Positions 22,790-38,915 are shown, counted from the stretch's first letter. The stretch is DNA of 64,000 nucleotides from Candidatus Omnitrophota bacterium (GCA_028712375.1 JAQTQG010000004.1:5303-69302), one strand, 5' to 3'. Translations and numbers: made by a program. Notes: generated by a model not told the origin, from the sequence alone.

Positions 22790-23818
22790 ATGAAAAGCGC
22801 AATAAGCGAAGAATATATTGATTTCTTGAATGAAATAAAATCGCGCATTGTTACGGCGCGGGTTCAAGCGATTAGGTCGGTCAATAAAGAGCTTATAAAA
22901 TTATATTGGGATATTGGCAAAACTATTGTACAGAGGCAGAAGAAATATAGGTGGGGAGATGCGGTAGTTGTGAAACTCGCCAACGATTTGAAAGAAGATT
23001 TTAAAACAACATTTGGCTTTTCAACCCAAAATCTCTGGTATATGCGTCAATTTTATCTTGAATACAAAGAAGACTCAATTCTCCAACAGCTTGTTGGAGA
23101 ATTACCGTGGGGGCATAATATACTTATTTTCTCCCGGATCAAAAACAAAATAGAAAGAGAATATTATTTAAAGTCATCGGCACAGATGGGTTGGTCAAGA
23201 AATGTCCTTCTTAATCAGATTAAGGCCGGCGCCTATCATTATCAAAAAAGTATGTTGAAACAGCATAATTTTTCAAAAGCTCTCCCGGTTTATCTTAATG
23301 AGCAGGCGGATGAATCCATCAAAAGCGTTTATAACCTGGATTTTCTGGATATCACAAAATCCGTAGTGGAGCGGGAGCTAGAACGCCGCCTTGTAGAAAA
23401 AATTAAGCGTTTTATGCTCGCATTGGGTAAAGGGTTTTCATTTCTTGGCCACCAATATCGTCTCGCGTTGAGGAATAATGAATATTTTGTTGACCTTTTG
23501 TTTTTTAACCGGGTATTGAAATGCTTGGTGGCGGTTGAGCTTAAGACTGGCAAGTTTGAGCCTGAATATGCCGGGAAGATGGATTTTTACCTGCAGCTAT
23601 TGGATGAACAAATAAAGCTGAAAGATGAGAATCCGTCAATAGGCATTATTCTGTGCGCGGCTAAGGATAATATTGTAGTTGAGTATGCCTTGCGCAGTGT
23701 TAAAAAGCCGATAGGAGTTGCTGAATACTATCTTACTAATAAACTTCCTAAATATTTGGCTGGAAAACTTCCTGATGCCAGCGCATTGAGGCTACCGATA
23801 CGAGAGGAATTAAGATAG
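22790..23818 (+). CDS. DUF1016/YhcG-family PD-(D/E)XK nuclease
   Basis: 342 aa. N-terminal region ELIKLYWDIGKTIV...FGFSTQNLWYMRQFYLEY is typical of DUF1016. C-terminal D...ELK motif (VDLLFFNRVLKCLVAVELKTGKF). Confidence 0.75.
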   Translation: MKSAISEEYIDFLNEIKSRIVTARVQAIRSVNKELIKLYWDIGKTIVQRQKKYRWGDAVVVKLANDLKEDFKTTFGFSTQNLWYMRQFYLEYKEDSILQQLVGELPWGHNILIFSRIKNKIEREYYLKSSAQMGWSRNVLLNQIKAGAYHYQKSMLKQHNFSKALPVYLNEQADESIKSVYNLDFLDITKSVVERELERRLVEKIKRFMLALGKGFSFLGHQYRLALRNNEYFVDLLFFNRVLKCLVAVELKTGKFEPEYAGKMDFYLQLLDEQIKLKDENPSIGIILCAAKDNIVVEYALRSVKKPIGVAEYYLTNKLPKYLAGKLPDASALRLPIREELR

Positions 23819-23838: not shown

Positions 23839-24522
23839 ATGACGAGGCAAAACCTAACTATCCGCGATCTGCCCAGGATTGAGCGCCCGCGGGAGAAACT
23901 TATAAAATACGGAGCAAGCAGGCTTTCAAATATAGAATTGTTAGCGATTCTCTTGCGTACAGGTAAACAAGGGGAGAGCGTTTTAGCTTTTGCTGCTCGC
24001 TTTCTGCGTCTGATCAGCTTAGAAAAAATAACCGATCTATCATTTGAAGAATTTAGAAAGGTCTCAGGCATTGGCCCGGCTAAAGCTTGTGAATTGCTTT
24101 CTTGTGTGGAGCTTGGCCGCAGGATTTTTGAGCATAAAAAGGCCCAAATCTCCCAATTACTTTCCCCGGAGGATGTATTTAACAATCTAAAGGATGTCCG
24201 TTTAAGTAAAAAGGAACACTTTGTGGTTTTCTTCCTGGATTCCCGTAATCAGGAGATTAAGCGTGAGATCATTTCGGTTGGCACGATTAATGCCAGCCTG
24301 GTCCATCCGCGGGAGGTTTTTGAGCCGGCAGTGAAATACTTGGCGGTACAGATCATTCTTGCGCACAACCATCCTTCCGGCACCCTGGAGCCATCCGAGG
24401 ATGATTTGGCGGTGAATAAGCGTTTAACTGAAGCCGGGAAAATCCTGGGGATAGAAGTCCTTGATCATATTATCGTTACTAAAGACAGCTTTATTAGTTT
24501 TAAAGAAAAGGGGCTATTATGA
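23839..24522 (+). CDS. radC: RadC-like JAB-domain protein, copy 2
   Basis: 227 aa. LSNIELLAILLRTG HhH and HNHPSGTLEPSEDD JAMM motif. Paralogous to 2735..3415. Confidence 0.85.
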   Translation: MTRQNLTIRDLPRIERPREKLIKYGASRLSNIELLAILLRTGKQGESVLAFAARFLRLISLEKITDLSFEEFRKVSGIGPAKACELLSCVELGRRIFEHKKAQISQLLSPEDVFNNLKDVRLSKKEHFVVFFLDSRNQEIKREIISVGTINASLVHPREVFEPAVKYLAVQIILAHNHPSGTLEPSEDDLAVNKRLTEAGKILGIEVLDHIIVTKDSFISFKEKGLL

Positions 24523-24845
24523 AGAAAAAAGAATTTGACAAGGCACATAAAAGTATATACAATTGTATATACTTTGAATCGGGGAAAATGCTCTCTGGCC
24601 CAATAAGGTGGAATGCGTTAAAGAATATCCGCTTGAAGCTAACCCGGCGTATATCTTTTGAAGAAATTATACATGCTAGATTATTAGATCTTACTGATCA
24701 TCCGAATCGAAGTGACCAAAAAATCTTGGTATGTGAATATAAGGGATATGTGTGGGTAGTGCCATTTATTTTTGAAGAGGATGGTGTTTTTCTAAAAACC
24801 ATATATCCAAGCCGTAAGTATAAAAAATCTTATGAGAAAGGTTAA
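24519..24845 (+). CDS. brnT: BrnT-family (DUF497) ribonuclease toxin
   Basis: 108 aa. W..KN....ISFEE...D...HPNR...EYKGY.WVV.F..EED..FL.TI.PSRK..K.YE pattern resembles DUF497. Start overlaps the radC stop. Confidence 0.6.
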   Translation: MKKKEFDKAHKSIYNCIYFESGKMLSGPIRWNALKNIRLKLTRRISFEEIIHARLLDLTDHPNRSDQKILVCEYKGYVWVVPFIFEEDGVFLKTIYPSRKYKKSYEKG

Positions 24846-25116
24846 TCTTATGAAAAAGAAAGATGATTTTATTAAAAGTATTAAATTAACTAAAGAAGAG
24901 CAGTGGATAGAAGATCATATGGAAGAATTCGTCCCAATAAAAGGCCCGGAGTATGATTTTATCGTAGCTTCCATAGAGCGCAAGAAGAAGGAAATGGTTT
25001 TGAATATGCGCATTAACCGGGACGATCTGGAAGCGATTAAGCAAAAAGCCCGCAAAGCCGGGATTAAATACCAGACGCTTATCTCCGAGATTCTGCACAG
25101 GGTCGCCCAAAATTAA
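24832..25116 (+). CDS. brnA: BrnA-family antitoxin (ribbon-helix-helix C-terminus)
   Basis: 94 aa. Overlaps the brnT end. C-terminal LEAIKQKARKAGIKYQTLISEILHR matches the BrnA GIPYQ.LI..LH signature. Confidence 0.6.
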   Translation: MRKVNLMKKKDDFIKSIKLTKEEQWIEDHMEEFVPIKGPEYDFIVASIERKKKEMVLNMRINRDDLEAIKQKARKAGIKYQTLISEILHRVAQN

Positions 25117-25240: not shown

Positions 25241-25296
25241 TCTATCTTTTAAAACTATAATCTTCTACGTTTTTCCTGTCATTTTCCCTCCAAAAG

Positions 25297-25400
25297 TGCT
25301 ATAATTTAAGCTTCTTAGGAGAAATTATGTCTTTATTTAAGTTTGCGTTTAATTTATATTTATAGCTATTTTTAACCCAGCCGTATAAGCTGGGTTTTTG
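25297..25400 (+). promoter_or_regulatory. Putative extended -10 promoter (TGcTATAAT), 12-codon leader ORF (MSLFKFAFNLYL, 25327..25365, RBS AGGAG) and intrinsic-terminator-like hairpin (25376..25400). Forms a candidate attenuator immediately upstream of the PLD-SNF2 gene.
   Basis: All elements seen directly in the sequence. Hairpin cccagc-cgtataa-gctggg is followed by ttttt, 19 nt before the ATG at 25419. Confidence 0.35.
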
Positions 25401-25418
25401 TTTAAGAAAGGTAGTTAA

Positions 25419-28400
25419 ATGCATACAGATCTAACATTCTTTACTAATGAGAAAGATTCAACCTTGCTCCAGCGTTTTAAGGTAACTCTAGAGAATAACA
25501 CTCAATTTTTTGATGTCTTAGTTGGTTATTTTCGCACTAGCGGTTTCTTTCATTTGTATAAATCGCTGGAAAAAGTTGAGAAAATTCGTATTCTCGTTGG
25601 AATTAATGTGGACAGGCAGACTCACGACCTCACCGTGAAAGCCAAAGAAGATCAGCTATCGATTAAATTCTCCCACAAAGAAGCTAAGGATACTTTTTCT
25701 GAGCAAGTAGCGCGTGAAATGGAAGAATCTGAGGATAATGTCGATGTTGAACTTGGCGTCCAAAAGTTTATTGAGTTTATTAAATCCGGAAAACTCCAAA
25801 TCCGCGCTTATCCCTCCGGAGATATTCACGCCAAGGTTTATATAATCCGCAAAGATATTAATAAAAGTGAGGATTATGGGCGGGTGATTACTGGTTCAAG
25901 CAATTTTTCATATTCCGGCCTGCATGATAATTTAGAGTTTAACGTCGAACTTAAAGATAGTAGGGATGTTAAATACGCCCTGGAGAAGTTTGAAGAACTC
26001 TGGAAAGACGGAGTTGATATCTCCGAAAAATATGTTGAAACCATTAATGAAAAGACCTGGCTTAATGATACCATTGTGCCTTACGAACTTTATCTGAAAT
26101 TCCTTTATGAATATTTTAAAGAAAAGATCAACGAGGATATGGACTCGATCTACAAAGATAAGCGTTTCCTTCCTGAGGGATTCATGGATCTAGAATATCA
26201 GGATGAAGCGGTCAAGGATGCTTTAACTAAGCTGGGTGATTACGGTGGGGTATTTCTGGCTGATGTTGTCGGTTTAGGTAAAACTTACATTTCTGCTTTA
26301 CTTGCTCAGCAGTTAGAGGGCTATACTTTGGTTATTTGTCCGCCGGTACTTATGGATTACTGGCACGATACGTTTAGAGACTTTGGCGTTCGTGGTTTTG
26401 AAGTTGAATCTTTAGGGAAATTAGACAAACTTATTGAGAATGGGGTTGAGAAATACCGGAACATCTTCATCGACGAAGCGCATCGCTTTAGAAACGAAAC
26501 CAATCAGACTTATGAGAAGCTTAAACAAATTTGTTGGGGAAAAAGGATAATCTTGGTGTCCGCAACTCCATTGAATAACACGCCGTTTGATATCTTGAGT
26601 CAGATTAAACTTTTTCAGAAAGGCCATAACAGTACCATCCCTAATGTTCGCGATCTTGATAAGTTCTTTGCTGGATTGCAGAAGAAACTAAAATCCGTAG
26701 ACCGTAAGGAAATTAAGAATTATCTCAAATTGGTCAAAGAGAACTCTTTGATTATCCGGGAAAATATCCTTAAATATCTTATGGTAAGAAGGACCAGGAC
26801 TGAAGTTTTGAAATATTTTAAGAAAGACCTACAACAGCAGAGGTTGAAATTCCCGGAAGTTGCCGAACCAAGACGAGTCTATTATCAGTTTGACGCGCAG
26901 CTTGATAAAATCTTTATGCGTACTATTGAGTTGATTAAAAATTTTAAATACACCCGCTATATGCCGCTGTTATATTTAAAGAACCCTGATCCACAGGAAG
27001 TATCCGGTCAGCGCAACCTCGGGCGTTTTATGCGTATATTGCTAGTCAAGCGATTGGAAAGCAGTTTCTACGCTTTTAAGATGACCCTGGATAGATTTAT
27101 TCATTCTTACGATGTCTTCATCAAAATGCTTGATAAAGGTACAATTTATATCAGCAAGAAACACAGTGAGAAGATCTACGAAGCCTTAGAAAATGATGAC
27201 ATAGACAGGATCATGGAATTGGTTGAGCAAGATAAAGTGCAGAAATACGAAGCCAATGATTTTGGTAAACCGTTTAGAGAGAATCTAAAAGATGATTTGG
27301 ATATTCTTCTTGAGATGAAGAAGCTGTGGGATGGTGTTCAAGCTGATCCCAAGATTGATCAATTTAAATCAATTCTTACCAAGGATAAGATACTTAAAGA
27401 AAATAAGCTGATAATTTTCACTGAATCCAAGGAAACTGCCGAGTATTTAGATAGGAATTTAAGGCAAGAATTCGGTGATAAAGTTATATCTTATTCCAGT
27501 AAATCCAGCGCATCGGTCCGTGAAACGATAATTGATAACTACGATCCGAAGCACAAGAACCAAAAAGACGATATCCGTGTTCTTATCACTACCGATATCT
27601 TGGCCGAAGGCGTTAATTTGCACCGCGCCAATGTAGTTATTAATTATGATATCCCCTGGAATCCTACTCGAGTTTTGCAACGTGTAGGCCGCGTTAACCG
27701 TGTTGATACCAAATTTGATGATATCTACGTCTATAACTTCTTTCCCTCGGTTCAGGGCAACAATGAAATCAAGCTGGAAGAAGCGGCCATAGCTAAGATT
27801 CAGGCTTTTCATGATACGCTTGGCGAAGACGCACAATATCTAACCGAAGGCGAGGAGTATACTTCTCATGAGTTGTTCAATCGTTTGAATTCCCAAAAAC
27901 TCTTGGCAGAAGGTGGGGAGGAAGATGAAGATTCAGAATTGAAATATCTTTCTGAGATCAGGGATATCCGGGATAACAATGCTGCTTTATATGAAAAGAT
28001 AAAACGCCTGCCCAAGAAAGCCCGCAGTGCCAAAGTGTATCCTGATTTTAAGGAAGCAGTGGTTACGTTCTTTAAGAAAGGCAAATTGCGAAAGATTTAT
28101 ATTGCTGACGCGAAGGAAGCTAAAGAACTCGATTTCTTCAATGCCGCCGTAATTTTAAAATCTGAAAATACGAAAAAGAAAGAAAAGCTTGCCGCCGATT
28201 TTTACAAGCTTTTGGCTCAAAACAAGGATCAGTTCAAGCTTGCCACTACCGAAGAAGCGCGTGAATTCAAGCAGGAAGGCGGCCGCAGCAATGAGATAAC
28301 GCTTGTTAGAACAATTAAAGCCATTAAGAAGTTTTCTGGGTTTACGGATGAGGACGAAGAATACTTGGAAAGAGTGTTAAAAGCCTTAGAAGAGGGAGCT

Positions 28401-28586
28401 TTACCTAAACAGACTAGTAAAACTCTAGTTAAACAGATAAAAGGGGAAAGCAATCCTTTGAAAATTCTTTTCAAGTTTAAGCAGGGGATCCCGCATAATT
28501 TCTTCTCTGAAGGATTTGTAGATAATCCATATTATAACACGGCTCCCAGAGAAGTTATTTTGTCAGAATATTTGATTAATAAATAA
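25419..28586 (+). CDS. Fusion of an N-terminal PLD-family (HKD) nuclease domain with an SNF2/SF2 helicase (DEAH box)
   Basis: 1055 aa. HKD motif DIHAKVYII...ITGSSNFS. Walker A LADVVGLGKTYI. DEAH box IFIDEAHRF. Helicase-C motifs ITTDILAEGVNLH...NYDIPWNPTRVLQRVGRVNR. Confidence 0.85.
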   Translation: MHTDLTFFTNEKDSTLLQRFKVTLENNTQFFDVLVGYFRTSGFFHLYKSLEKVEKIRILVGINVDRQTHDLTVKAKEDQLSIKFSHKEAKDTFSEQVAREMEESEDNVDVELGVQKFIEFIKSGKLQIRAYPSGDIHAKVYIIRKDINKSEDYGRVITGSSNFSYSGLHDNLEFNVELKDSRDVKYALEKFEELWKDGVDISEKYVETINEKTWLNDTIVPYELYLKFLYEYFKEKINEDMDSIYKDKRFLPEGFMDLEYQDEAVKDALTKLGDYGGVFLADVVGLGKTYISALLAQQLEGYTLVICPPVLMDYWHDTFRDFGVRGFEVESLGKLDKLIENGVEKYRNIFIDEAHRFRNETNQTYEKLKQICWGKRIILVSATPLNNTPFDILSQIKLFQKGHNSTIPNVRDLDKFFAGLQKKLKSVDRKEIKNYLKLVKENSLIIRENILKYLMVRRTRTEVLKYFKKDLQQQRLKFPEVAEPRRVYYQFDAQLDKIFMRTIELIKNFKYTRYMPLLYLKNPDPQEVSGQRNLGRFMRILLVKRLESSFYAFKMTLDRFIHSYDVFIKMLDKGTIYISKKHSEKIYEALENDDIDRIMELVEQDKVQKYEANDFGKPFRENLKDDLDILLEMKKLWDGVQADPKIDQFKSILTKDKILKENKLIIFTESKETAEYLDRNLRQEFGDKVISYSSKSSASVRETIIDNYDPKHKNQKDDIRVLITTDILAEGVNLHRANVVINYDIPWNPTRVLQRVGRVNRVDTKFDDIYVYNFFPSVQGNNEIKLEEAAIAKIQAFHDTLGEDAQYLTEGEEYTSHELFNRLNSQKLLAEGGEEDEDSELKYLSEIRDIRDNNAALYEKIKRLPKKARSAKVYPDFKEAVVTFFKKGKLRKIYIADAKEAKELDFFNAAVILKSENTKKKEKLAADFYKLLAQNKDQFKLATTEEAREFKQEGGRSNEITLVRTIKAIKKFSGFTDEDEEYLERVLKALEEGALPKQTSKTLVKQIKGESNPLKILFKFKQGIPHNFFSEGFVDNPYYNTAPREVILSEYLINK

Positions 28587-28587
28587 G

Positions 28588-31500
28588 ATGAAAAATCTGG
28601 TAAGGCAGACCTTAGAGAGAGATTTTGATCTTCCGCAATATACCGAATTCGTAAAAAATCTATTTAATGAGATTCAAATTCAGCCCCAAGAAATCAAAGT
28701 CCCTGACAGCTCTCAAGAATTTATCAAGAAAATAACATTTCTTTCTGAATTCTCTGATACTCAGAAGAAAACCATAGATGTTTATGCAGTTGAGCTTGTC
28801 GGCGGCACAAAAGTAGAGCGCGCCCGTTCCTTTCAACGTAACATTATTTCAAAACTGCTCAAGGATAACACTAAAGACGCTGGATTAGTGGCTTTTTACT
28901 CTAAGGATAACCCTGACTGGCGGCTATCTTTTATTAAACTGGACTATAAACTGACTGAAAAGGGCGTTAAAGTTGAAGTCGGTACTCCCCCTAAGCGTTA
29001 TTCCTTCCTGGTAGGCAAATCAGAGCCTTCTCACACTGCTCAGAAGCAACTTTTGCCAATCCTGGAAGATCAAAAGAGTAATCCGCTACTTTCAGATTTG
29101 GAAGTAGCTTTCAGTGTTGAAAGAGTAACCAAGGAATTCTACGAGCGCTACAGAAAATTATTCGAAGAGCTCTCTAAAGACTTAAAGAAAAATAAAGCAT
29201 TTCAGATCATTGCTGAAAAAGAAAATATTGATATTGATAACTTTGCTAAGAAATTACTTGGTCAGATAGTATTTTTATATTTTCTGCAGAAAAAGGGTTG
29301 GATAGGAGTGCCCCAGGATAAGTCATGGGGTCAGGGAGATAAGTTCTTCTTGACGCATCTGTTTAGCAAAGCGAAAGCCGGGAAACAAGATTTCTATGAT
29401 CATTATCTTGAGCCTCTTTTCTACGATACGTTGAATAATCCACGTCGCGATGAGGTCGACCCCGCATACTCGCGTTATTTTGACTGTAAAATCCCATTCT
29501 TAAACGGCGGTTTATTTGAGCCTGACTATGATTGGAAAAATACCCTTGTTTATCTTGGAAATGATATTTTTGAAGAAATCATTGATACTTTTGATCTTTA
29601 TAACTTCACTGTTAAAGAAGATGAACCGCTGGAAAAAGAGGTTGCGGTTGACCCGGAGATGTTGGGTAAGGTCTTTGAGAATCTTCTTCTTGAGAACATG
29701 CGCAAAGGCCAGGGCGCGTATTATACGCCCAGAGAAATTGTGCATTATATGTGCCAGGAAAGCCTCATTAATCATTTAAATACGGAAACTAAAGTTGATG
29801 CCGACAGAATAAGAAAGTTGATCGCTTTTAAAGATGAAGATTTGGTAAATGGCAATGGTTCGCGAAAAAAAGCCTTGGGATTTTCTGATGGTGAGGCTCA
29901 AAGCCTTGACTGGGCCTTAGCAAATATTAAAGTGTGCGATCCTGCCTGTGGTTCAGGAGCTTTCTTAGTGGGTATGCTTAATGAAATCGTCAGCGCCAGG
30001 CGAATTCTAGAACCGCGCTCGGAATATAAGCTCAAGAAGGAAACGATTCAGGAATGTATCTATGGCGTTGATATTGATCCCGGCGCAGTAGATATCGCGA
30101 AACTTCGCCTTTGGTTAAGTTTAGTTGTTGATTTCGAACTCAGGGATATTGAGCCTTTACCGAATTTGGATTATAAGATAATGTGTGGCAATAGCTTAAT
30201 TGAAGAGTTGATTGTTGGGGAAGAATCAATCAAGTTATTTGACGAGCGGCTGTTAAACATTAAAGAATTTAAAAACACTCCTCCGCAAGATGTGAGACTG
30301 GAAGAATTAAAAGAACAGTTTAAGGAGAAGCAGAAAGAATTACTTGAACTGCATGCCATGAATAAGCTTAGTATGGTGAAGAAAAATGAGCTTGATCTTC
30401 AGATTCGAACAATCAGTAAGGAACTTAACCCTATAGCGAAAAAAACAAAGTCTGAACCGTATCATCCGGTTTTATTTACTGATCAGGCAGATATATATTT
30501 TCAACGTCTTCGAGAGTTGCATAGACAGTTTTTTACCGAATATGATCCAATCAAAAAGAAGGGTCGGCGTAAGCAGATTGAAGAGATTGAGCTCGAGTTT
30601 ATTAAAAGCTCGATTAAAGAAAAAGTGGATGAGCTTGACTCAAAGATTCAAAATCTGAATATGCAAGATTCGCGAGATAGAAATAAACAAGCAGTATTGA
30701 TGAAAAAAAAGCTTGAATATTTAGCTGTTCCGGATCAGATGCGCAATTCAAAAACGAAGCCATATTTCTTGTGGAAGATGAATTTTTTCGAAGTATTCCA
30801 GGAAAAAGGTGGATTTGATGTTGTAATAGCTAATCCACCGTACGATGTTTTAAATGAAGCAGGAAACAATAGAGATCAAAGAAATTTCCTAGATTTAATT
30901 AAAAGGGGGAGATTATTTGAACATTCCCTCGGAGGAAAAATTAATCTATTTAGACTATTTATAGAAAAGGGATTTTATTGCACAAGAAAAAATGGTTTCC
31001 TGACCTATATAGTACCAAGTACGATATTAGCAGATAAAGGAACTACAAATATACGAAAATTGTTGGCGAATAATACAACAGTAAGGTTCTTTTTAGAGTT
31101 TCCCGAAAAAAGTAAAGTGTTCGAAAGCGTTACGCAGGCAGTAGCTATTTTCTTGTTTCAAAAAAAAATCGAGAATAATAATTTCTTTATCTCAACAAAC
31201 ATTCAATCTCAAAACTTGCCTCCGGAAGAAAAATTTTTTACTAACTGGTTAGAAATAAAACAGATTTCAGGAGACGACTTAGCCATTCCTTTGGTCAAGA
31301 ATGCTAAAGAATACGCAGTTTTAGGTAAAATGCTGACCAATAATATACCTTTGGGCAAACTAGTGGAAATTAAGCAAGGCGATATTAATTTAACTTTTCA
31401 TAAAATGTTTCTGTCCGATAAGCCATCGGAAAGAATTTTGGTAAGAGGAGAACATATTCAAAGGTTTCGCGTTAATTTAGATACATTAGATAAGGATCGT

Positions 31501-32028
31501 AGATGGGTCGATTGGGAAGCAATGAAAAGAGAATTAGGGGAACTTAAAATTGAAACAATAAGGATAAATTCTAGCGTTGAACGTATTGTTCTCCAGCAGG
31601 TTGCAAATATGGGTCTAGAGAGAAGGATTGTTGCTTCAATTATTCCCCGAGACGTTATTGTCGGAAATTCAGCTAATTTTATAATACCTAGGAAAGATTA
31701 TGAACGTGTTGATATGCAATCGATATTAGCCATATTATCATCCAAAGTTATAAACTGGAAATTTAAAAAAACTAGTACAAATAATCATGTAAATATATAC
31801 GAATTAGAAAATCTTCCATTTCCCAAGCAGCTTTTAAAAGAGAAAAATGATTATCTTGGTAAATTGGTTACAGAAATTCTTAATATTACGCGAGAGGAAA
31901 GCTATTTGGCTAATGCCAGCATGCAAGCTAAGGTCAAAGAATATGATCGTCTGATCGACCAAATCGTATATAAACTTTATGGACTTACTCTTGATGAAAT
32001 TAAACTAGTAGAGAATTTCAATAAATGA
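28588..32028 (+). CDS. Large gamma-class N6-adenine DNA methyltransferase with C-terminal TRD-like region (Eco57I/PglX/DrmMI-like)
   Basis: 1146 aa. IPFLNGGLFE helical-domain motif. Motif X GAYYTPREIV, motif I DPACGSGAFL, LPNLDYKIMCGNSL, and motif IV VIANPPYDV. Start is 1 nt after the upstream stop (translational coupling). Confidence 0.85.
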   Translation: MKNLVRQTLERDFDLPQYTEFVKNLFNEIQIQPQEIKVPDSSQEFIKKITFLSEFSDTQKKTIDVYAVELVGGTKVERARSFQRNIISKLLKDNTKDAGLVAFYSKDNPDWRLSFIKLDYKLTEKGVKVEVGTPPKRYSFLVGKSEPSHTAQKQLLPILEDQKSNPLLSDLEVAFSVERVTKEFYERYRKLFEELSKDLKKNKAFQIIAEKENIDIDNFAKKLLGQIVFLYFLQKKGWIGVPQDKSWGQGDKFFLTHLFSKAKAGKQDFYDHYLEPLFYDTLNNPRRDEVDPAYSRYFDCKIPFLNGGLFEPDYDWKNTLVYLGNDIFEEIIDTFDLYNFTVKEDEPLEKEVAVDPEMLGKVFENLLLENMRKGQGAYYTPREIVHYMCQESLINHLNTETKVDADRIRKLIAFKDEDLVNGNGSRKKALGFSDGEAQSLDWALANIKVCDPACGSGAFLVGMLNEIVSARRILEPRSEYKLKKETIQECIYGVDIDPGAVDIAKLRLWLSLVVDFELRDIEPLPNLDYKIMCGNSLIEELIVGEESIKLFDERLLNIKEFKNTPPQDVRLEELKEQFKEKQKELLELHAMNKLSMVKKNELDLQIRTISKELNPIAKKTKSEPYHPVLFTDQADIYFQRLRELHRQFFTEYDPIKKKGRRKQIEEIELEFIKSSIKEKVDELDSKIQNLNMQDSRDRNKQAVLMKKKLEYLAVPDQMRNSKTKPYFLWKMNFFEVFQEKGGFDVVIANPPYDVLNEAGNNRDQRNFLDLIKRGRLFEHSLGGKINLFRLFIEKGFYCTRKNGFLTYIVPSTILADKGTTNIRKLLANNTTVRFFLEFPEKSKVFESVTQAVAIFLFQKKIENNNFFISTNIQSQNLPPEEKFFTNWLEIKQISGDDLAIPLVKNAKEYAVLGKMLTNNIPLGKLVEIKQGDINLTFHKMFLSDKPSERILVRGEHIQRFRVNLDTLDKDRRWVDWEAMKRELGELKIETIRINSSVERIVLQQVANMGLERRIVASIIPRDVIVGNSANFIIPRKDYERVDMQSILAILSSKVINWKFKKTSTNNHVNIYELENLPFPKQLLKEKNDYLGKLVTEILNITREESYLANASMQAKVKEYDRLIDQIVYKLYGLTLDEIKLVENFNK

Positions 32029-32072
32029 ATTGGAGAAGCCTAGGGCATAGTTTGTAATAAAGGAGGAAGTTG

Positions 32073-32930
32073 ATGCTTAATTTGCTTTTGACGGATAAGC
32101 CAGAGATCCGCAAGATGGAATTTGTATTTTGTCGGTTTCATTTCGAAGGATTATTCTCTCAGGATGTACTTACCAGAATGAAGGAATTCTTAATGAAATC
32201 AGAAGAAAAATCAATAGAAGAAGAAAGATTTAAGTGGGCTTTTGGAGATGTTGGAATCCAAAGCATCAATAATGATGAAATAATCTATGGAAGGCTTGGT
32301 AGGACGATTAAACAGAAATTCGGGACAGTATACGATCAAAATAAGCACTCCTATAAGAAAGATCTAATAAAAAGTAGTGAAGCGGCATATTCAAACTTTT
32401 TTATAATGCCAAAATTTAACATAATAGCTTTAGAGGATAAGTATAATTTAACTAAAAAGTTATTCATTAGTAAGTTTAAGGAATTTTGGGATAAAAATGA
32501 CTATACCGACATAAAATTTGAATTTTTAAAAGATGAAATAGAAATATTTGATTTAGTCAAGAGCTGGGATAGGCTTTCTCGCGCAACATTTGATTTGGTT
32601 CCTTCTAATCCTAGTTCACGAGACGACTGGAAAGAAGTTGATGAAATAATCCGAAAAGCTGAGGCCAAAAGAGCTAAATTAGAATTTGAAAATAGAGAAA
32701 AGGGTTTAGCGAAACAAGGAAGCGTTATTCAAAAAAGCATGTCTATGGCAGCAGATGGGTATGGAGAATTTAAGTTAAAAGGATGGATAGGTAATGTTGG
32801 CCAAACCTTCAATTCTTTATCAACAATAATCAAAAAGGAAATACATAGTGTAGATGAATTACCTGCGATTTTAGGGCAGCTATATAAAGAAATCAAAAAG
32901 ATTTTGGAAAGGAAAAAGGAGAATGGGTGA
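32073..32930 (+). CDS. Hypothetical protein (unknown family), first of four small genes downstream of the MTase
   Basis: ATG at 32073 with AGGAGG RBS. The track lists a TTG at 32070. Lys/Glu-rich soluble protein. No motif recognised. Confidence 0.4.
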   Translation: MLNLLLTDKPEIRKMEFVFCRFHFEGLFSQDVLTRMKEFLMKSEEKSIEEERFKWAFGDVGIQSINNDEIIYGRLGRTIKQKFGTVYDQNKHSYKKDLIKSSEAAYSNFFIMPKFNIIALEDKYNLTKKLFISKFKEFWDKNDYTDIKFEFLKDEIEIFDLVKSWDRLSRATFDLVPSNPSSRDDWKEVDEIIRKAEAKRAKLEFENREKGLAKQGSVIQKSMSMAADGYGEFKLKGWIGNVGQTFNSLSTIIKKEIHSVDELPAILGQLYKEIKKILERKKENG

Positions 32931-33468
32931 AAGCAATTATGATTTAAAAAATTTATTCAAAAAATATGGGGGTTGGGTTAGAATATTCAAGTCTTTTGAT
33001 TTCATTTTTGCTTTCATCTTTGCTATGTTTGTTTTTTGTTATATGACATGGCCTGATGCTACTGGTCGGGGTTATTTCGCCAAAGAATTGGCCTCAGTTT
33101 TATTAAACATCTCTGCCAGTTTATTCGGAATATTATTTGCAGCCTTCGCAATTATACTTTCGCTATCTGATGAAAAATTCATAAAATTCCTAAGAAAGCA
33201 TAATGTGTTGGATAAGATTCTATTTCCATTTTGGTTTATTTCTTTTTTGTACATAATTAATATAGCTCTCGATATTTTAATAAAATTCTTTCCTGATAAT
33301 ATTGCCAAATATTTTACTACTATTTCTATTTTACTATTCTTTTGGGCTATTTTTGGTACGGCATATCTTATTAGTGATACAGTTTCTTTCGGGATAAGAA
33401 GGGCAGATTATTTAGAATTTGAGAAAGAAATAGGGGAATTAACGAAAGATACAAAGCAGACGCGATAA
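32923..33468 (+). CDS. Hypothetical multi-pass membrane protein
   Basis: 181 aa. About 4 hydrophobic segments. Overlaps the upstream gene by 8 nt. Confidence 0.4.
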   Translation: MGESNYDLKNLFKKYGGWVRIFKSFDFIFAFIFAMFVFCYMTWPDATGRGYFAKELASVLLNISASLFGILFAAFAIILSLSDEKFIKFLRKHNVLDKILFPFWFISFLYIINIALDILIKFFPDNIAKYFTTISILLFFWAIFGTAYLISDTVSFGIRRADYLEFEKEIGELTKDTKQTR

Positions 33469-33522
33469 ATGTACGCTTTACGTCTTAATGTAAAAATGTC
33501 TTATAGCTGAGATGGAGGGGGT

Positions 33523-34140
33523 ATGGACGAAAAATTACAGAATATCACAGTATTAGAGAATATGCATAAGTTATTTCTTGAAGCTTTGCGTCATCGTGAA
33601 CAAGAAATTTTTCATTATCTTGCCATACTCGGCCCAGCACTTGTTGGTTTTGGATGGATTTTATATTATCGAGAAGGGCGTGCTGTTGAATTCGCTTGTG
33701 TGACAATAGTAGTTTTAGCACTTTTATTGCTAGGAGCGATTTATTCTTTGGCTTTAGGATACAACTATCGGTATATTGTTCTGGAATTAGCCAAATTGGA
33801 AGCGGTGTTAAAGATTAAGAATGCTATGCTTGTTGGTTGGCCTAGATCGAGAGAAGAATTTCTCTTGCGGTACAGGTTTTTACGCTATATCCCATGGTGC
33901 ACACCTCCCGAGATAATTAAAGTCTTTTGGTGGGCTTTCTTAGTAGCGATAATTTTAGTAATGATGATAGCTTATAAACTTAATCATAGTTATAATAATC
34001 TGATGCTTGGATTTGGGTTACTTTGTTTAGTACTAGGTTCTTTTCTGTTTCCAATCTATTTCGGTCGTAAGTTACGAAAAAATTGTAAACAAGAACCAGA
34101 AGCTTGGATAGAAGAAAGTACAAAAAGCAAGATTGCATGA
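33523..34140 (+). CDS. Hypothetical multi-pass membrane protein
   Basis: 205 aa with ~4 predicted TM segments. Basic C-terminus. Confidence 0.4.
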   Translation: MDEKLQNITVLENMHKLFLEALRHREQEIFHYLAILGPALVGFGWILYYREGRAVEFACVTIVVLALLLLGAIYSLALGYNYRYIVLELAKLEAVLKIKNAMLVGWPRSREEFLLRYRFLRYIPWCTPPEIIKVFWWAFLVAIILVMMIAYKLNHSYNNLMLGFGLLCLVLGSFLFPIYFGRKLRKNCKQEPEAWIEESTKSKIA

Positions 34141-34209
34141 GATTTTCGATAGACAAAATAAGTAAAATTAGCATTTTAGTCTAAGTAGTTATCGTAGAGA
34201 GCGCTTATT

Positions 34210-34680
34210 ATGGGACGATGGGAACGAAAAGACGTGCCTCATAAAGGATGGATTTGCGTTGATTACTATGATTTACATGCAAATGGAGAAGTAGGGTATG
34301 CTACTTGCGAGATGTGTAACAATGAAAGAATTAGATATATTCATATAATGCGTCATGAAAGTTATGCTAAAGAGTTAAAAGTTGGTTGTATATGTGCAGA
34401 AAAGATGGCTGACGACTATGTGGGGCCTAAAAGTCGGGAAAAACTACTCAAAAATCGATCAATTCGCCGCAAGAATTGGTTAAAAAGAAATTGGAGACAA
34501 TCTTCGCGGGGGAATGATTATTTGAATGTAGACGGGCACAATGTTACTATTTTTCCAGATAAAAACAGGGCTGAGCATTGGAAATTTAAGATAGACGATG
34601 ATTTTAGTTTAAAAAGCTATGTCGAAAAGAATCAGGCGAAGATAGCGGCTTTTGATGCGTTAATGAAGAAGCGAGAATGA
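34210..34680 (+). CDS. Hypothetical Cys-containing protein (possible zinc-binding)
   Basis: 156 aa. C...CEMC...CIC spacing. No family recognised. Confidence 0.35.
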   Translation: MGRWERKDVPHKGWICVDYYDLHANGEVGYATCEMCNNERIRYIHIMRHESYAKELKVGCICAEKMADDYVGPKSREKLLKNRSIRRKNWLKRNWRQSSRGNDYLNVDGHNVTIFPDKNRAEHWKFKIDDDFSLKSYVEKNQAKIAAFDALMKKRE

Positions 34681-34747
34681 TTGCTCACCAAAAGGGAGTA
34701 TCCCTTTTTCATATACAACTCAAAGGGTATATGTTAAGTGGGGCTTT

Positions 34748-34826
34748 GGGCGGCTGGTGGAATGGCAGACACACAAGCCTTGAAAGCTTGTGGACTTAGG
34801 TCCGTGAGGGTTCGACTCCCTCGCCG
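34748..34826 (+). tRNA. tRNA-Ser (anticodon TGA)-like gene with a non-complementary 3' acceptor strand. Possibly truncated, a pseudo-tRNA, or an att junction.
   Basis: 5' acceptor gggcggc, then tg. D-arm gtg/gaatggcaga/cac. Anticodon arm caagc-cttgaaa-gcttg (TGA at positions 34-36). Long variable arm ggac-tta-gtcc. T-arm gaggg-ttcgact-ccctc. The following 7 nt are gccggaa, not the expected gccgccc. Confidence 0.55.
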
Positions 34827-34884
34827 GAAATTATTTGAAAGATTAACATAGATTTTTCAATTGATTCAAGCAGGAGGCATAGGA

Positions 34885-36585: not shown

Positions 36586-37071
36586 ATGAAAAGAAACGCA
36601 ATTCCCGACAGTTTAAGGCAACTTTTATTTCAAGAGGCTAATTTTCAGTGTGCTTATTGTGGGCATCGTGATGGCTTAAATTTAACCTGTCATCATATTA
36701 AATCTAGCGGGGAAAAGGGAGAAACTCATTACAATAATTTGATAGCTTTATGCTATAACTGCCATAATAGGATACATGAGTCCAAAACAATAAACGATAG
36801 CGATATTAGAAGAATAAAACGACACTTAGTCCATAATTTTTTAACTCAATCTGGAGTAAACGCATTAAAGATAGCATATAATGATATAGACGGTTTTGTT
36901 TATGCCGTGCCTTCTTTATTGGATCATCTTGAGGAAAGGGGTTTAATAGAATCTGAGAGCATAGGGTATTCAGCAAAGATAAAAATAAGTACCCCGGCCA
37001 TTAATAATGTTCGTTATAGAATTACTGATGAAGGTAAAAGATTGTATGAAATTTGGCTTAAATCAAAATAA
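36586..37071 (+). CDS. HNH endonuclease
   Basis: CAYCGH...CHHI...NLIALCYNCHNRIH HNH/zinc motif. Confidence 0.75.
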   Translation: MKRNAIPDSLRQLLFQEANFQCAYCGHRDGLNLTCHHIKSSGEKGETHYNNLIALCYNCHNRIHESKTINDSDIRRIKRHLVHNFLTQSGVNALKIAYNDIDGFVYAVPSLLDHLEERGLIESESIGYSAKIKISTPAINNVRYRITDEGKRLYEIWLKSK

Positions 37072-37135
37072 ATTAATAGTTGTTTTGTATCTAACTGGTA
37101 GAAAGCATATTCGTAGGTTTTAGTAGACGAGAACC

Positions 37136-37507
37136 ATGCAAATTAAAATTACCATAAATAAACTTACAGTTTTCGCGGAACTCAATGCCTCTAAAACCGC
37201 GCAATTGATTTGGGATAGTCTACCGCTTGAGGCTGATGCGGAGCTTTGGGGCGATGAAGTTTATTTTTATATTAAACCCAAGACGGGTATTGAAAAAGAA
37301 TACGCGCGCCAGGTGGTTGAGGTTGGTGATGTTGCCTATTGGCCGCAAGGGCCTTGTATGTGCTTATTTTTTGGCATGACTCCCAATAGCCGGGATGGTA
37401 AGATTATGCCGGCGAGCGCGGTAAATGTATTTGGTAAGTTAAAAACTGATCCTTTAGTGTTAAAGCAGGTTAAAGAGGGGCAGCGGATTAAGGTTGAGCA
37501 AGCCTAA
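37136..37507 (+). CDS. Cyclophilin-like-fold protein (DUF3830-like)
   Basis: 123 aa. The pattern KITINKLTVFAELNASKTAQ...VAYWPQGPCMCLFFG resembles the uncharacterised cyclophilin-like family. Confidence 0.45.
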   Translation: MQIKITINKLTVFAELNASKTAQLIWDSLPLEADAELWGDEVYFYIKPKTGIEKEYARQVVEVGDVAYWPQGPCMCLFFGMTPNSRDGKIMPASAVNVFGKLKTDPLVLKQVKEGQRIKVEQA

Positions 37508-37592
37508 GTAAATATATAAAACGGCCTGTCCATATTTGTTCTGTAGTTAAAAGAACTGCAAGTAGCTAAGTAATCGTTTATTATCTTATCCT

Positions 37593-38915
37593 ATGAAACT
37601 TTTCTCCCACCAAACAATCGCCAATGATCAGCTTCCGGAAAATCTTGATATCAACGATGAGTTTGAAAAGGCGTTTGAGCTGATGGAGCATACCAAAGAA
37701 TGCCTTTTTATCACCGGTAAAGCGGGCACCGGAAAATCTACGCTTTTAAAATATTTTAAAGCTAATACCGGAAAGAATATCATTGTCTTGGCTCCCACGG
37801 GGGTTGCCGCGGTGAATGTCGGCGGCCAGACAATTCATTCCTTCTTCAGGTTTCCTCCTAAAATCATTCAAAAGGAGACGATAAAACGCCTGCGGGATAG
37901 GAGCTTATTCGAAAACCTGGATATGATTATTATTGATGAGGTCTCCATGGTGCGTTCAGACCTGATGGATGGGATAGATTACGCGTTACGCCTTAACCGC
38001 GGCCGGATGAAAGTGCCTTTTGGCGGAGTGCAGATGGTATTTTTCGGAGACCTTTTTCAATTGTCTCCGGTAGTAGAACATGAATCCAGAAAACTTTTAG
38101 GAGAGCGGTATTTAAGCCCTTATTTTTTTAGCGCTAAAGTATTTGACGATTGCCACCTGAGGACCATTGAACTATCGACGATTTACCGGCAAAAAGATAG
38201 CGCGTTTATGGAGCTTTTAAACCGGGTGAGGAATAAAGAGCATACCGGAAAGGACTTGGCGATATTAAATAAGAAGGTGCAAAAAGATGTTACCGTTTCC
38301 CGGAAAGATTCAACCGTGATTCTGACGACGACTAACAGCCTGGCCAATGCGATTAACCAGGAGCGTTTATCCAAGCTGCCCGGTAAAGAGATGGTGTATA
38401 AAGCTAATGCTACCGGTAAATTTGAAGAGTCGGCATATCCTACGGAATCATCGCTCAGGCTTAAAAAAGGCGCGCAGGTAATTTTAATCAAAAATGATCC
38501 TGATAAAAGATGGGTCAACGGTACGCTGGCCAAGGTTGCCGCTTTATCGCCAGATTCAATCGTCGTGGAGATCGATGGTTTTACCTATGATGTCCCGGTG
38601 GTAAAGTGGGAGAAAGTTGAATATAGCTATAATGAAGATGAAGATAAAATAGAAGATGAGGTGGTGGGGGAGTTCGCGCAGTATCCCTTAAAGCTGGCCT
38701 GGGCAATTACTATTCATAAAAGCCAGGGGCAGACTTTTGATAAGGTGATTATTGACCTTGGATATGGTGCTTTTACCCACGGCCAGTTATATGTTGCTCT
38801 TAGCAGATGCACTTGCCTGGACGGTATAAAGCTTAAACGCCCGGTGGCCCACAGCGATATCATCTTTGATGAGCGTATTTATGAATTTAACCAGCGGTTT
38901 GCCAGCTTATTTTAA
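37593..38915 (+). CDS. Pif1/RecD-like SF1 DNA helicase
   Basis: Walker A ITGKAGTGKSTLLK. Motif II IIIDEVSMV. C-terminal ITIHKSQGQTFD typical of Pif1/RecD-like helicases. Confidence 0.8.
   Translation: MKLFSHQTIANDQLPENLDINDEFEKAFELMEHTKECLFITGKAGTGKSTLLKYFKANTGKNIIVLAPTGVAAVNVGGQTIHSFFRFPPKIIQKETIKRLRDRSLFENLDMIIIDEVSMVRSDLMDGIDYALRLNRGRMKVPFGGVQMVFFGDLFQLSPVVEHESRKLLGERYLSPYFFSAKVFDDCHLRTIELSTIYRQKDSAFMELLNRVRNKEHTGKDLAILNKKVQKDVTVSRKDSTVILTTTNSLANAINQERLSKLPGKEMVYKANATGKFEESAYPTESSLRLKKGAQVILIKNDPDKRWVNGTLAKVAALSPDSIVVEIDGFTYDVPVVKWEKVEYSYNEDEDKIEDEVVGEFAQYPLKLAWAITIHKSQGQTFDKVIIDLGYGAFTHGQLYVALSRCTCLDGIKLKRPVAHSDIIFDERIYEFNQRFASLF

Follow-up and report, generated by a model that had tools for sequence, protein, structure and literature searches.

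Genes for a PLD-SNF2 fusion protein and a DNA methylase lying side by side have been on record since 2018, when Van Mastrigt et al. described, for Lactococcus pLd8, an ORF combining PLD and SNF2 domains beside a methylase that REBASE lists as 'Type IIG', and drew a comparison with DISARM (PMC6098607). In 2023, Milman et al. reported Bacteroides Type II restriction-modification (R-M) genes with an adjoining gene for a PLD+SNF helicase (PMC9881135). Judged by sequence, the pair analysed here joins this arrangement, the function of which is putative; because the same arrangement has been described twice, the pair is not new in kind, and the arrangement, of which the earlier note could not say whether it had been characterised, is already on record. 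The layout and gene order are the same at pLd8 orf33/orf34 and in its relatives pJM1F, Leuconostoc LK-151 and L. lactis JM3, SK110 and N41, as well as at the Bacteroides/Prevotella loci that combine a Cj0031 homologue with a PLD/SNF helicase: an ORF with PLD, SNF2 and Helicase_C domains precedes a 'Type IIG' gamma methylase with a TaqI_C target recognition domain (TRD). Gene 1 is 32% identical to the P. nigrescens helicase (E 1e-104) and 25-27% identical to its pJM1F counterpart (E 4e-31), and gene 2 is 34% identical to the P. nigrescens methylase (E 2e-89). The lactococcal methylase aligns to gene 2 from aa 174 only, the N-terminal alpha/beta domain being absent or too diverged there. In the Lactococcus, Bacteroides and Prevotella loci, which come from cultured relatives, TRD cassettes in inverted orientation and an Mpi invertase form a specificity shufflon, so that specificity is phase-variable, as is typical of R-M systems (PMC9881135), whereas neither cassettes nor invertase were found in the window, the 64 kb stretch of Candidatus Omnitrophota DNA that was analysed.

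The closest characterised effector to gene 1 is MtsD of MANTIS (Gao_RL/Gao_29, BREX-related type 2), likewise a fusion of a PLD/HKD nuclease with an SF2 helicase-like ATPase, which works as a dimer sharing a single PLD site and targets unmethylated sites as set by an adenine methylase. The best PADLOC match of gene 1, the 'HKD+Snf2' model (PDLC01075, 7e-47, 158-bit), denotes kinship with the MANTIS family rather than membership of it. The MANTIS methylase is loaded by MtsA (DUF499 AAA+) and MtsB (DUF3780/3870), both missing from the window, and this methylase, MtsC, is an alpha-class DPPY enzyme whose TRD is central; the gene 2 product, in contrast, is a gamma-class NPPY enzyme with its TRD at the C-terminus. 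Class 1 DISARM (DrmD SNF2, DrmMI, DrmA, DrmB, DrmC PLD) has a SNF2 ATPase, a PLD nuclease and an Eco57I-type adenine methylase in common with the pair, but its core proteins DrmA and DrmB (DUF1998) are missing here, and its PLD nuclease is a separate protein, DrmC, instead of being fused to SNF2. Type ISP enzymes run from N- to C-terminus through the same series of nuclease, SF2 motor, gamma-class adenine methylase and TRD as the pair, and translocate from an asymmetric site by ATP hydrolysis, a mode likely common to both. They are, however, single polypeptides with an Mrr-family PD-(D/E)XK nuclease, where here the functions are divided between two polypeptides, with a nuclease of the PLD type and a motor of the Swi2/Snf2 type, and no Type ISP entry (LlaGI/LlaBIII) was among the 50 Foldseek PDB matches listed for either protein. 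The pair thus stands outside both definitions, as the earlier note held; its description as DISARM-like or split Type ISP-like is a fair functional analogy, although MtsD, which that note did not consider, is closer and the N-terminal domain of gene 2 had been overlooked. SauUSI and CglI/NgoAVII combine a PLD nuclease with an SF2 helicase-like motor and form one PLD site per dimer, as we propose for gene 1. SauUSI is a single-protein Type IV enzyme with its own TRD that targets methylated cytosine, and CglI/NgoAVII, unlike gene 1, place nuclease and motor on separate proteins. CglI/NgoAVII use a C5 methylase. The gene 1 model did not retrieve SauUSI within its 50 best structural matches.

Both genes lie on the + strand, as do all features below, with the coordinates, sizes and 1-nt spacing given in the earlier note: gene 1 (25419..28586) is an ORF of 1055 aa for a PLD/HKD nuclease-Swi2/Snf2 ATPase fusion, and gene 2 (28588..32028) one of 1146 aa for a gamma-class N6-adenine DNA methyltransferase with a C-terminal specificity domain. 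The junction reads TAA-G-ATG (28584..28590), in which the gene 1 stop (28584-28586) is followed by one base (G) and the gene 2 ATG at 28588, and translational coupling is likely. The accessory-island setting already claimed was borne out in part: a YhcG/DUF1016 PD-(D/E)XK protein (22790..23818; Pfam YhcG_C 1.3e-60; PADLOC PDC-S02) is encoded 1.6 kb upstream, and RadC and a CopG/BrnA-like antitoxin are also encoded upstream, while four unannotated ORFs and tRNA-Ser lie downstream. The pair sits within a low-GC island adjoining the tRNA gene, together with toxin-antitoxin and nuclease genes.

Could the pair be a fragment of class 1 DISARM, BREX or MANTIS/BREX-related type 2, with the other genes elsewhere in the genome? 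Partial matches exist, of gene 1 to DrmD (1.6e-37), to HKD+Snf2 and to BrxHI/HII, and of gene 2 to DrmMI (1e-29) and PglX. Curated equivalog models, however, score far below their cut-offs (DrmD 137 against 610, NCBIfam PglX 78 against 500, DrmC 19.6 against 133), and the MANTIS methylase differs from gene 2 in class and TRD position. DrmA, DrmB/DUF1998, PglZ, BrxC, DUF499 and DUF3780 are all absent from the neighbours and other large ORFs of the window, and across 73 loci from many phyla no DISARM, BREX or MANTIS partner gene is a recurrent neighbour of the pair. We therefore regard this explanation as extremely improbable.

Comparison of loci instead supports a self-contained unit. The methylase gene was found downstream of the helicase gene on the same strand at 73 of 80 genome loci, or 73 of 76 informative ones once four contig ends, among the seven loci without a downstream methylase, were left out; L083 is a decayed copy of the module that retains a TaqI_C fragment. 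Searching from the methylase side, at about 40-45% identity, returned an upstream helicase in 4/4 relatives. Adjacent homologous pairs are separated by -11 to +10 nt in 36 cases out of 40. No third gene is conserved, the largest neighbour cluster being present in only 5 of the 73 loci compared, and no fused helicase-methylase protein (Rosetta-stone support) was found. Gene 1 has more than 8000 homologues, the best 120 of which are nearly all full length (a few are shortened) and at least 56% identical, and gene 2 likewise has thousands of full-length homologues; the pair consequently extends far beyond chance. The loci are drawn from many bacterial and archaeal phyla, in which the pair is patchily distributed at 50-70% identity, consistent with horizontal transfer. 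Genes 1 and 2 hence constitute a conserved and very widespread two-gene module.

In gene 1, Pfam recovered the N-terminal HKD/PLD nuclease and DEAH SNF2-type helicase recognised earlier. The PLD domain (aa 29-195, 25503..26003; PLDc_2 9e-12, RE_NgoFVII 3.7e-4) contains a single HxK...GSSN motif (H137, K139, N162), formed by IHAKVYI (aa 136-142, 25824-25844) and GSSNFS (aa 159-164, 25893-25910), with H137, K139, G159, S160, S161 and N162 invariant in 37 sequences; much of aa 1-180 is poorly predicted in the monomer model (pLDDT < 50). ATPase lobe 1 (aa ~258-472, 26190..26834; SNF2-rel_dom 1.8e-12, ResIII, AAA_22) bears Walker A GLGKT (aa 285-289, 26271-26285), DEAH (aa 352-355, 26472-26483) and an invariant SATP (26559-26570). 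Lobe 2 (Helicase_C 1.3e-22, aa 645-762, 27351..27704) includes motif VI QRVGRVNR (aa 754-761, 27678-27701; Q754, R755, G757, R758 and R761 invariant). IHAKVYI, GSSNFS, GLGKT, DEAH and QRVGRVNR are all invariant across the 37 homologues, and the predicted structure matches the Swi2/Snf2 translocases CSB, RapA, Chd1 and ISWI (Foldseek against PDB): the motor is a true Swi2/Snf2 ATPase. The C-terminal domain (aa 840-1055, 27936..28583) has no Pfam match and is modelled as helices and a four-stranded sheet (pLDDT about 80-89), with an invariant tail E1045-x-ILSE-x-L1052 (REVILSEYL in the window). This domain and the N-terminal domain of gene 2 diverge in correlation (r=0.57), and we infer that the former is a candidate surface for contact with the methylase.

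All the gamma-class motifs listed in the earlier note were located in gene 2 (Pfam Eco57I 2e-28, N6_Mtase 6.5e-16, MmeI_Mtase, TaqI_C): FLNGGLF (aa 304-310, 29497-29517), YYTP (aa 378-381), the AdoMet-binding motif I DPACGSGAF (aa 451-459, 29938..29964; invariant in 30 homologues), GNSL (aa 534-537) and the catalytic motif IV NPPY (aa 749-752, 30832..30843), of which N749, P750 and P751 are invariant and Y752 is present in at least 90%. With the catalytic motifs of both genes intact, neither is a pseudogene. A helical bundle (aa 149-340, 29032..29607, from model secondary structure) precedes the methylase core and harbours FLNGGLF; aa 219-241 and 303-310 are invariant blocks. In the models, BREX PglX/BrxX is the closest solved structure nearly over the full length (BrxX/PglX, E 6e-18, ~1070 columns), followed by M.TaqI, CamA and M.BseCI, and it shares with gene 2 the helical N-terminal bundle (PMC12839542), the gamma methylase and the C-terminal TRD. 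BREX differs in that PglZ, BrxC, BrxA, BrxB and BrxL are absent from the window pair, and gene 2 in possessing, in addition, an alpha/beta domain at its N-terminus and, between the two methylase lobes, a long helical, coiled-coil-like insertion (aa ~567-720, 30286..30747, model helices), which is shorter in a WOR-3 homologue. The TaqI_C-type TRD spans aa 952-1077 (31441..31818; Pfam 1.9e-6). The AT-rich tail reported before was also recovered, the GC content falling from 0.397 over aa 1-540 to 0.334 over aa 541-1146.

The two halves of gene 2 have distinct histories. Divergence of aa 1-540 follows that of gene 1 (Mantel r=0.50, reached by 0/2000 permutations), and most closely so in the N-terminal domain (r=0.58), whereas the NPPY lobe and TRD, at 20-33% identity, show no such relation (r=0.01-0.08); the TRD itself has a mean identity of 0.20 among family members and is uncorrelated with gene 1. 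Identity and co-evolution collapse past aa ~540, and the helical insertion forms the border between the conserved and the shuffled half. On these alignments, the N-terminal half co-evolves with gene 1 while the NPPY lobe and specificity domain are shuffled, although genes of one operon can also co-evolve through common descent, with no physical contact involved.

The N-terminal alpha/beta domain (aa 1-145, 28588..29022; modelled, pLDDT about 80-89) may serve to dock gene 1 or may be a PD-(D/E)XK nuclease of variant type. It occurs in this methylase family alone, in 734 clusters, and always N-terminally in proteins of ~1000-1280 aa or in shorter fragments. R80, R84, W111, R112, S114 and R137 are invariant, and among 59 sequences E/D77 (55/59), D110 (58/59), K117 (52 K and 5 R, 57/59) and D/E119 (59/59) are nearly so. 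Since D110, K117 and D/E119 are near-invariant and the domain occupies the nuclease position of Type IIG enzymes, a second nuclease in the module is conceivable. Type IIG enzymes such as BpuSI and MmeI are built as nuclease domain, helical linker, gamma methylase and TRD, and gene 2 follows this order. Databases class its family as "Type IIG", and the earlier possibility that the pair is a named R-M subtype proved half right, the REBASE-derived PADLOC model REase_MTase_IIG (PDLC03596) matching gene 2 at 2e-150 with aa 2-406 covered. Gene 2 might then be an autonomous Type IIG restriction-methylase able to cut DNA without gene 1, which would be a habitual companion adding processive ATP-driven degradation or a backup against escape, not the primary nuclease. 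The residues and position of the domain, this label and the solitary Type IIG enzyme Cj0031, which restricts phage 5-1000 fold (PMC4889913) and of which Milman et al. list solitary homologues (PMC9881135), speak for such activity. The window protein even has the complete set E77/D110/D119/K121; yet position 121, the canonical nuclease lysine, is K in just 20/59 members, and 18/59 have the E..D..(D/E)xK pattern complete. Sequence searches of Pfam and PDB matched the domain to no nuclease family or solved nuclease, the best whole-protein structural match is PglX/BrxX and not any listed Type IIG/IIL nuclease-methylase, and the lactococcal methylase has no restriction domain according to Van Mastrigt et al. 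(PMC6098607). An autonomous enzyme would have no need of the near-constant helicase linkage, nor does it sit well with a family-restricted domain whose divergence follows gene 1. We thus consider autonomous cleavage by gene 2 unlikely, if deserving of attention.

We rather favour, as the probable reading, a two-subunit, ATP-dependent R-M system, for which we infer contact between both proteins, dimerisation, translocation, cleavage, hemimethylation and a defence role. Gene 2 would be reader and writer, its TaqI-like C-terminal domain recognising a short, probably asymmetric DNA site and its gamma-class NPPY methylase marking an adenine at that site on the host genome. Gene 1 would be the effector and, having one HKD motif per chain, would have to dimerise to build a single PLD active site, its motor acting as a Swi2/Snf2 double-strand DNA translocase. 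Where this site lacks the mark, the motor-nuclease would be recruited or licensed by the methylase, probably by the latter's family-specific N-terminal half, and would then hydrolyse ATP, move along DNA and cut at a distance. The logic would be that of Type ISP, Type III and MANTIS, in two proteins and without an AAA+ loader. That a methylase complex can direct a dimeric PLD-SF2 effector has a precedent in MANTIS MtsD; as reconstitution of MtsD cleavage was unsuccessful in its authors' hands and the MANTIS methylase requires two loader proteins absent here, the loader-free version is our assumption. The pLd8 orf33/orf34 operon was interpreted in the same way by Van Mastrigt et al. (PMC6098607).

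A role outside defence, in which an epigenetic-regulation methylase and a Snf2 remodeller or repair nuclease act on host DNA, has parallels in the phase-variable Type IIG methylases that alter gene expression (PMC4889913) and in the Snf2 proteins RapA and CSB, which work in transcription and repair. We deem it very improbable given the patchy cross-phylum distribution, the island setting, the hypervariable, shuffled TRD and the conserved nuclease fused to the motor. Defence-type genes are moreover inserted within the operon: variable inserts between the two genes encode YhcG, Fic/DOC, AbiEii, PIN, NYN, Schlafen-like, Bro-N and ORF6N proteins. They resemble the accessory genes inside Type I R-M operons, and YhcG, upstream of the pair in the window, is an optional accessory that lies between helicase and methylase in L001/L002 and L007.

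Two co-oriented ORFs lie on the forward strand at 25419..28586 (gene 1, 1055 aa) and 28588..32028 (gene 2, 1146 aa), exactly where the earlier note had placed them, and gene 2 does start 1 nt past the stop of gene 1 (TAA at 28584-28586, one base, then ATG at 28588). All the motifs it had named are present in the sequence, and the domains agree with Pfam. The single gene 1 ORF joins a PLDc_2 domain (aa 29-195), an SNF2-related/ResIII ATPase and a Helicase_C domain (aa 645-762), followed by 215 final residues without family assignment in Pfam. An alignment of homologues revealed invariant catalytic residues, namely H137/K139/N162 of the lone HKD motif, GLGKT, DEAH and QRxGRxxR. The predicted structure (mean pLDDT 70, the PLD part being weakly predicted as a monomer) matches the Swi2/Snf2 translocases CSB, RapA (1103 columns), Chd1 and ISWI. 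Homologues of this motor-nuclease number in the thousands; the best 120 come from widely differing phyla, with at least 56% identity and, in nearly every case, full length.

Gene 2 matches Eco57I, N6_Mtase, MmeI_Mtase and TaqI_C (aa 952-1077) in Pfam, and its motif order, with motif I ahead of NPPY and a C-terminal TaqI_C target recognition domain (TRD), is that of gamma-class methylases. DPACGSGAF and the NPP of NPPY are invariant among homologues, the tyrosine being found in at least 90% of them, and a protein from a Candidatus Omnitrophica MAG is 100% identical to the gene 2 product. The model (mean pLDDT 76) displays, from N to C terminus, an alpha/beta domain (aa 1-145), a helical bundle, a bilobed methylase split by long helices, and the TRD; its best match among solved structures is BREX BrxX/PglX (approximately 1070 columns, E 6e-18), followed by CamA, M.BseCI and M.TaqI. 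The earlier note had considered that degenerate motifs might betray a pseudogene, but neither gene is degenerate, their catalytic residues being intact and invariant.

The pair is real, intact and very widespread. Scanning one genome per species identified relatives in at least 554 species-representative genomes, including CPR bacteria, Omnitrophota, Chloroflexota, Nitrospirota, Bacteroidota, methanogens, DPANN and Asgard archaea. For neighborhood comparison, 80 loci were retrieved from Omnitrophota, Actinomycetota, Chloroflexota, Nitrospirota, CPR groups, Bacteroidota, Deltaproteobacteria, methanogens, DPANN and Asgard archaea. A gene 2 homolog follows the gene 1 homolog on the same strand in 73 of the 80 (73 of the 76 informative loci); of the others, four end at the helicase, two have too little sequence left and one is decayed. 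In the reverse direction, a PLD-SNF2 gene lies upstream of all four methylase relatives examined at approximately 40-45% identity. The split into two ORFs is conserved among homologous loci; where helicase and methylase are direct neighbors, the possible start of the methylase ORF falls at -11 to +10 nt relative to the helicase stop in 36 of 40 cases.

About 20 loci carry an insert of 0.6-1.7 kb between helicase and methylase, with variable content: YhcG/DUF1016, Fic/DOC, ATPase, ORF6N, Schlafen/AlbA_2, Bro-N, AbiEii with DUF6922, NYN or PIN. Passenger genes of the same assortment occur inside Type I R-M operons. Because the inserts represent such a Type I-like passenger assortment, YhcG can stand upstream of the pair in the window and be intergenic elsewhere, namely in two other lineages represented by loci L001 (13185-14214) and L007 (7357-8490), and also in L002. 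A DUF1016 variant of the loci combining a PLD+SNF helicase with Type II RM genes in Bacteroides was listed by Milman et al. 2023 (PMC9881135), and a YhcG/DUF1016 accessory has been reported at Type I and Cj0031-like loci; the gene may be a recurrent accessory of the pair. A conserved third gene was rejected, since clustering the neighbors of the 73 loci revealed no family in more than five of them. The 286-aa downstream ORF was likewise discarded as a partner, being dissimilar to its positional counterpart in WOR-3.

Two loci depart from the intact arrangement. In the Thermodesulfovibrionia locus L083 (13192-14735), the helicase-nuclease is intact, and the place of the methylase is taken by a Bro-N gene and, after it, a TaqI_C remnant of 237 aa, by its sequence a decayed methylase. 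This suggests that the motor-nuclease can be tolerated as an orphan. In a single MAG (L054, 2784-5966), the helicase gene is interrupted in its N-terminal, PLD-bearing part (the ORF has 782 aa and the protein match begins 830 nt earlier) and the methylase is intact, which could reflect decay or an assembly error.

A pair of this layout has been published before. In 2018, Van Mastrigt et al. (PMC6098607) described plasmid pLd8 orf33, with PLD, SNF2 and helicase domains, and orf34, a REBASE Type IIG methylase with TaqI_C and without a detectable restriction domain; these authors proposed that orf33 performs restriction, pointed out the likeness to class 1 DISARM and reported the same operon in further Lactococcus and Leuconostoc strains. 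Milman et al. 2023 (PMC9881135) found Bacteroides Type II RM genes beside a PLD+SNF helicase gene. Gene 1 shares with the orf33/34-type operon (PMC6098607) the combination of PLD, SNF2 ATPase and Helicase_C in one ORF, and gene 2 is likewise a directly adjacent, co-oriented gamma N6-adenine methylase with a TaqI_C TRD. The likeness to pLd8 is by description; in direct comparisons, gene 1 is 32% identical to the P. nigrescens helicase (1e-104) and 25-27% to that of pJM1F (4e-31), and gene 2 is 34% identical to the P. nigrescens methylase (2e-89). Cultured carriers include Lactococcus dairy plasmids, Prevotella, Thermoflavifilum thermophilum and Stygiobacter electus; the homologous genes are K8O81_RS10350/10355 in P. 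nigrescens and LLJM1_RS14050/14045 on L. cremoris pJM1F, and the T. thermophilum strain is DSM 14807.

The earlier note had proposed a module resembling a minimal DISARM or a split Type ISP enzyme while fitting neither definition, and the misfit is confirmed by the absence of DrmA/DrmB, the two ORFs and a PLD domain in place of Mrr. Class 1 DISARM requires DrmA and DrmB; neither the DrmA helicase nor DrmB (DUF1998), as the note had stated, nor PglZ, BrxC, DUF499 or DUF3780, was matched in the neighbors or other large ORFs of the 64 kb window, and no such neighbor recurs in the 73 loci, which argues against a fragment of canonical DISARM or BREX. The DISARM equivalogs also failed (NCBIfam DrmD 137 bits vs a cut-off of 610; DrmC_I 19.6 vs 133), and DrmMI gave only partial PADLOC matches to gene 2 (1e-29). 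As for BREX, the NCBIfam PglX model reached 78 bits on gene 2 against a cut-off of 500. In MANTIS/Gao_RL (BREX-related type 2), a dimeric PLD-SF2 effector is accompanied by a DUF499 AAA+ ATPase (MtsA) and a DUF3780 protein (MtsB), which load an alpha-class DPPY methylase. MtsA and MtsB have no Pfam or PADLOC match in the upstream genes or the four downstream ORFs and are absent from related loci, and MtsC, with its central TRD, differs from gene 2, which features NPPY and a C-terminal TaqI_C TRD. Gene 1 has the architecture of MtsD, to which it is likened by description, and its PADLOC 'HKD+Snf2' score (7e-47, aa 16-796) indicates a putative sister family of MtsD. Type ISP enzymes are single chains with an Mrr nuclease; gene 2 resembles them in having a gamma-class adenine methylase followed by a TRD, whereas here a TAA stop parts two ORFs and PLDc_2 occupies the motor N-terminus, in place of the Mrr-family PD-(D/E)XK domain. 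With the defining parts of DISARM, MANTIS and Type ISP missing, the pair therefore belongs to none of them, although by analogy it plausibly works like them. Type III R-M systems combine a beta-class Mod with a Res bearing a C-terminal PD-(D/E)XK nuclease, unlike the gamma-class motif order of gene 2 and the N-terminal PLD nuclease of gene 1. The LlaGI paper was set aside as a source on PLD-type Type ISP relatives, since it mentions PLD in general terms only, and YprA/ARMADA helicases were rejected as relatives, belonging to different helicase families.

The main rival reading, which we consider unlikely, makes gene 2 a Type IIG enzyme sufficient in itself and gene 1 an added processive nuclease. 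It draws on the REBASE-derived PADLOC model REase_MTase_IIG (PDLC03596), which names gene 2 Type IIG at 2e-150, and on the solitary Cj0031, which restricts phage by itself (PMC4889913). The N-terminal domain of gene 2 also occupies the nuclease position of Type IIG enzymes, and its residues were counted over 59 helicase-linked methylases. R80, R84, W111, R112, S114 and R137 are invariant, D110 is found in 58, D/E119 in all 59, E/D77 in 55, and position 117 is K in 52 and R in five; K121, the lysine of the canonical (D/E)xK, is present in 20 and the whole E..D..(D/E)xK pattern in 18. Gene 2 of the window itself has all four canonical residues. The domain obtained no Pfam match up to an E-value of 5, nuclease families included, and its profile found only chance-level matches among PDB sequences (E at least 0.18). 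An exhaustive search recovered it only at the N-terminus of proteins of approximately 1000-1280 aa or of shorter fragments, and the best 150 matches contained no Rosetta-stone fusion to a helicase. The earlier note had left room for a known, named R-M subtype: the Type IIG match and the published layout speak in part for this. No experimental study of any family member was found in the searchable literature.

Gene 2 is modular in its relation to gene 1. Pairwise divergence over aa 1-540 follows that of gene 1 (Mantel r=0.50, 0/2000 permutations), the correlation being highest for the first 145 residues (r=0.58), and the NPPY lobe and TRD show none (r=0.01-0.08), with a mean identity of only 20-33%. 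The break between the two halves falls within the long helical insertion at aa ~567-720 and, in the window, coincides with a fall in GC from 0.397 to 0.334. In L. cremoris pJM1F and P. nigrescens, partial methylase/TaqI_C cassettes in inverted orientation and an Mpi-family invertase come after the pair (cultured-relative loci L091, 8763-10230, and L092, 10578-14915), a specificity shufflon that matches the programmed-inversion arrangement of Milman et al. (PMC9881135). A TRD shufflon was rejected for the window, where neither inverted repeats nor an invertase were found.

We thus favor the reading of the pair as a two-subunit ATP-dependent R-M system, which is probably correct and finds its strongest support in the mutual linkage of the genes, the lack of a conserved partner and the division of the methylase into a conserved half that co-evolves with the motor and a specificity half that is freely exchanged. 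The methylase/TRD would read the site and mark it, and the PLD-Snf2 protein, which would have to dimerise to build one PLD site, would be recruited to unmarked sites, translocate and cut. More tentatively, with the odds slightly against it, the pair would be a separate class of ATP-dependent R-M lacking formal recognition, a 'Type ISP in trans' whose nuclease is of the PLD type. It would occur in at least several hundred bacterial and archaeal species and be mislabelled by current tools as single-gene Type IIG. Here the dimeric Swi2/Snf2-PLD motor-nuclease would be licensed directly by a PglX-like methylase, through an N-terminal domain specific to its family, with no need for the AAA+ loaders on which BREX and MANTIS depend.

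The components are familiar and a two-subunit system would not surprise a specialist. To annotation pipelines the pair appears as no more than a "Type IIG" methylase plus a generic "helicase"; it is systematically mis-annotated. If the two-subunit model is true, many Type IIG calls represent one half, for modification and recognition, of a motor-driven system. The simplest available model of the step in which a methylase passes an unmodified site on to a Snf2-PLD effector, relevant to MANTIS, DISARM and BREX as well, would then be this pair, and the conserved breakpoint in the methylase would account for the exchange of specificity cassettes with the motor interface left undisturbed.

The genes around the pair are all on the + strand, and GC drops from approximately 0.45 to 0.33-0.39 over ~23 to 35 kb of the window. 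On the 5' side lie NrdR, a YhcG/DUF1016 PD-(D/E)XK protein (22790-23818, +; PADLOC candidate PDC-S02, 1.6 kb upstream of the pair), RadC and a small gene pair. The accessory island with nucleases proposed in the earlier note is supported by YhcG, HNH and the low GC; its toxin-antitoxin pair is less certain. Two small overlapping ORFs (24519-25116; 108 and 94 aa), the second CopG/BrnA-antitoxin-like, are a toxin-antitoxin pair or else a regulator of the CopG type; an Arc/CopG repressor, MtsR, is encoded in some MANTIS operons. Immediately 5' of gene 1, within 25276-25418, a promoter-like site (CTGTCA-18-TATAAT with TG, 25276-25305), a 12-codon ORF (MSLFKFAFNLYL, 25328-25366) and a terminator-like hairpin with a T-run (25374-25396) resemble, in sequence, a possible leader or attenuator. 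A conserved regulatory leader was rejected, the region not being kept in the 92%-identical relative L007, as was the GC-rich 'TCATTGCGAGC' upstream element as a repeat, its count being reached in 32 of 100 shuffles.

On the 3' side, four co-oriented ORFs (286, 181, 205 and 156 aa; 32070-34680, +; GC 0.337) occupy the space between gene 2 and a tRNA-Ser (34746-34829), beyond which come a DUF2130 protein and an HNH protein. The four ORFs have no Pfam or PADLOC match and are not kept beside the pair in other genomes; the 181-aa ORF (32923-33468) displays weak PHROGs matches, only to families of unknown function. Past the tRNA gene, the region 36586-38915 encodes an HNH endonuclease-like ORF (36586-37071) and a RecD-like helicase (37593-38915) that matches PADLOC candidates PDC-S68 and PDC-M16A; defence-type content may therefore reach further.
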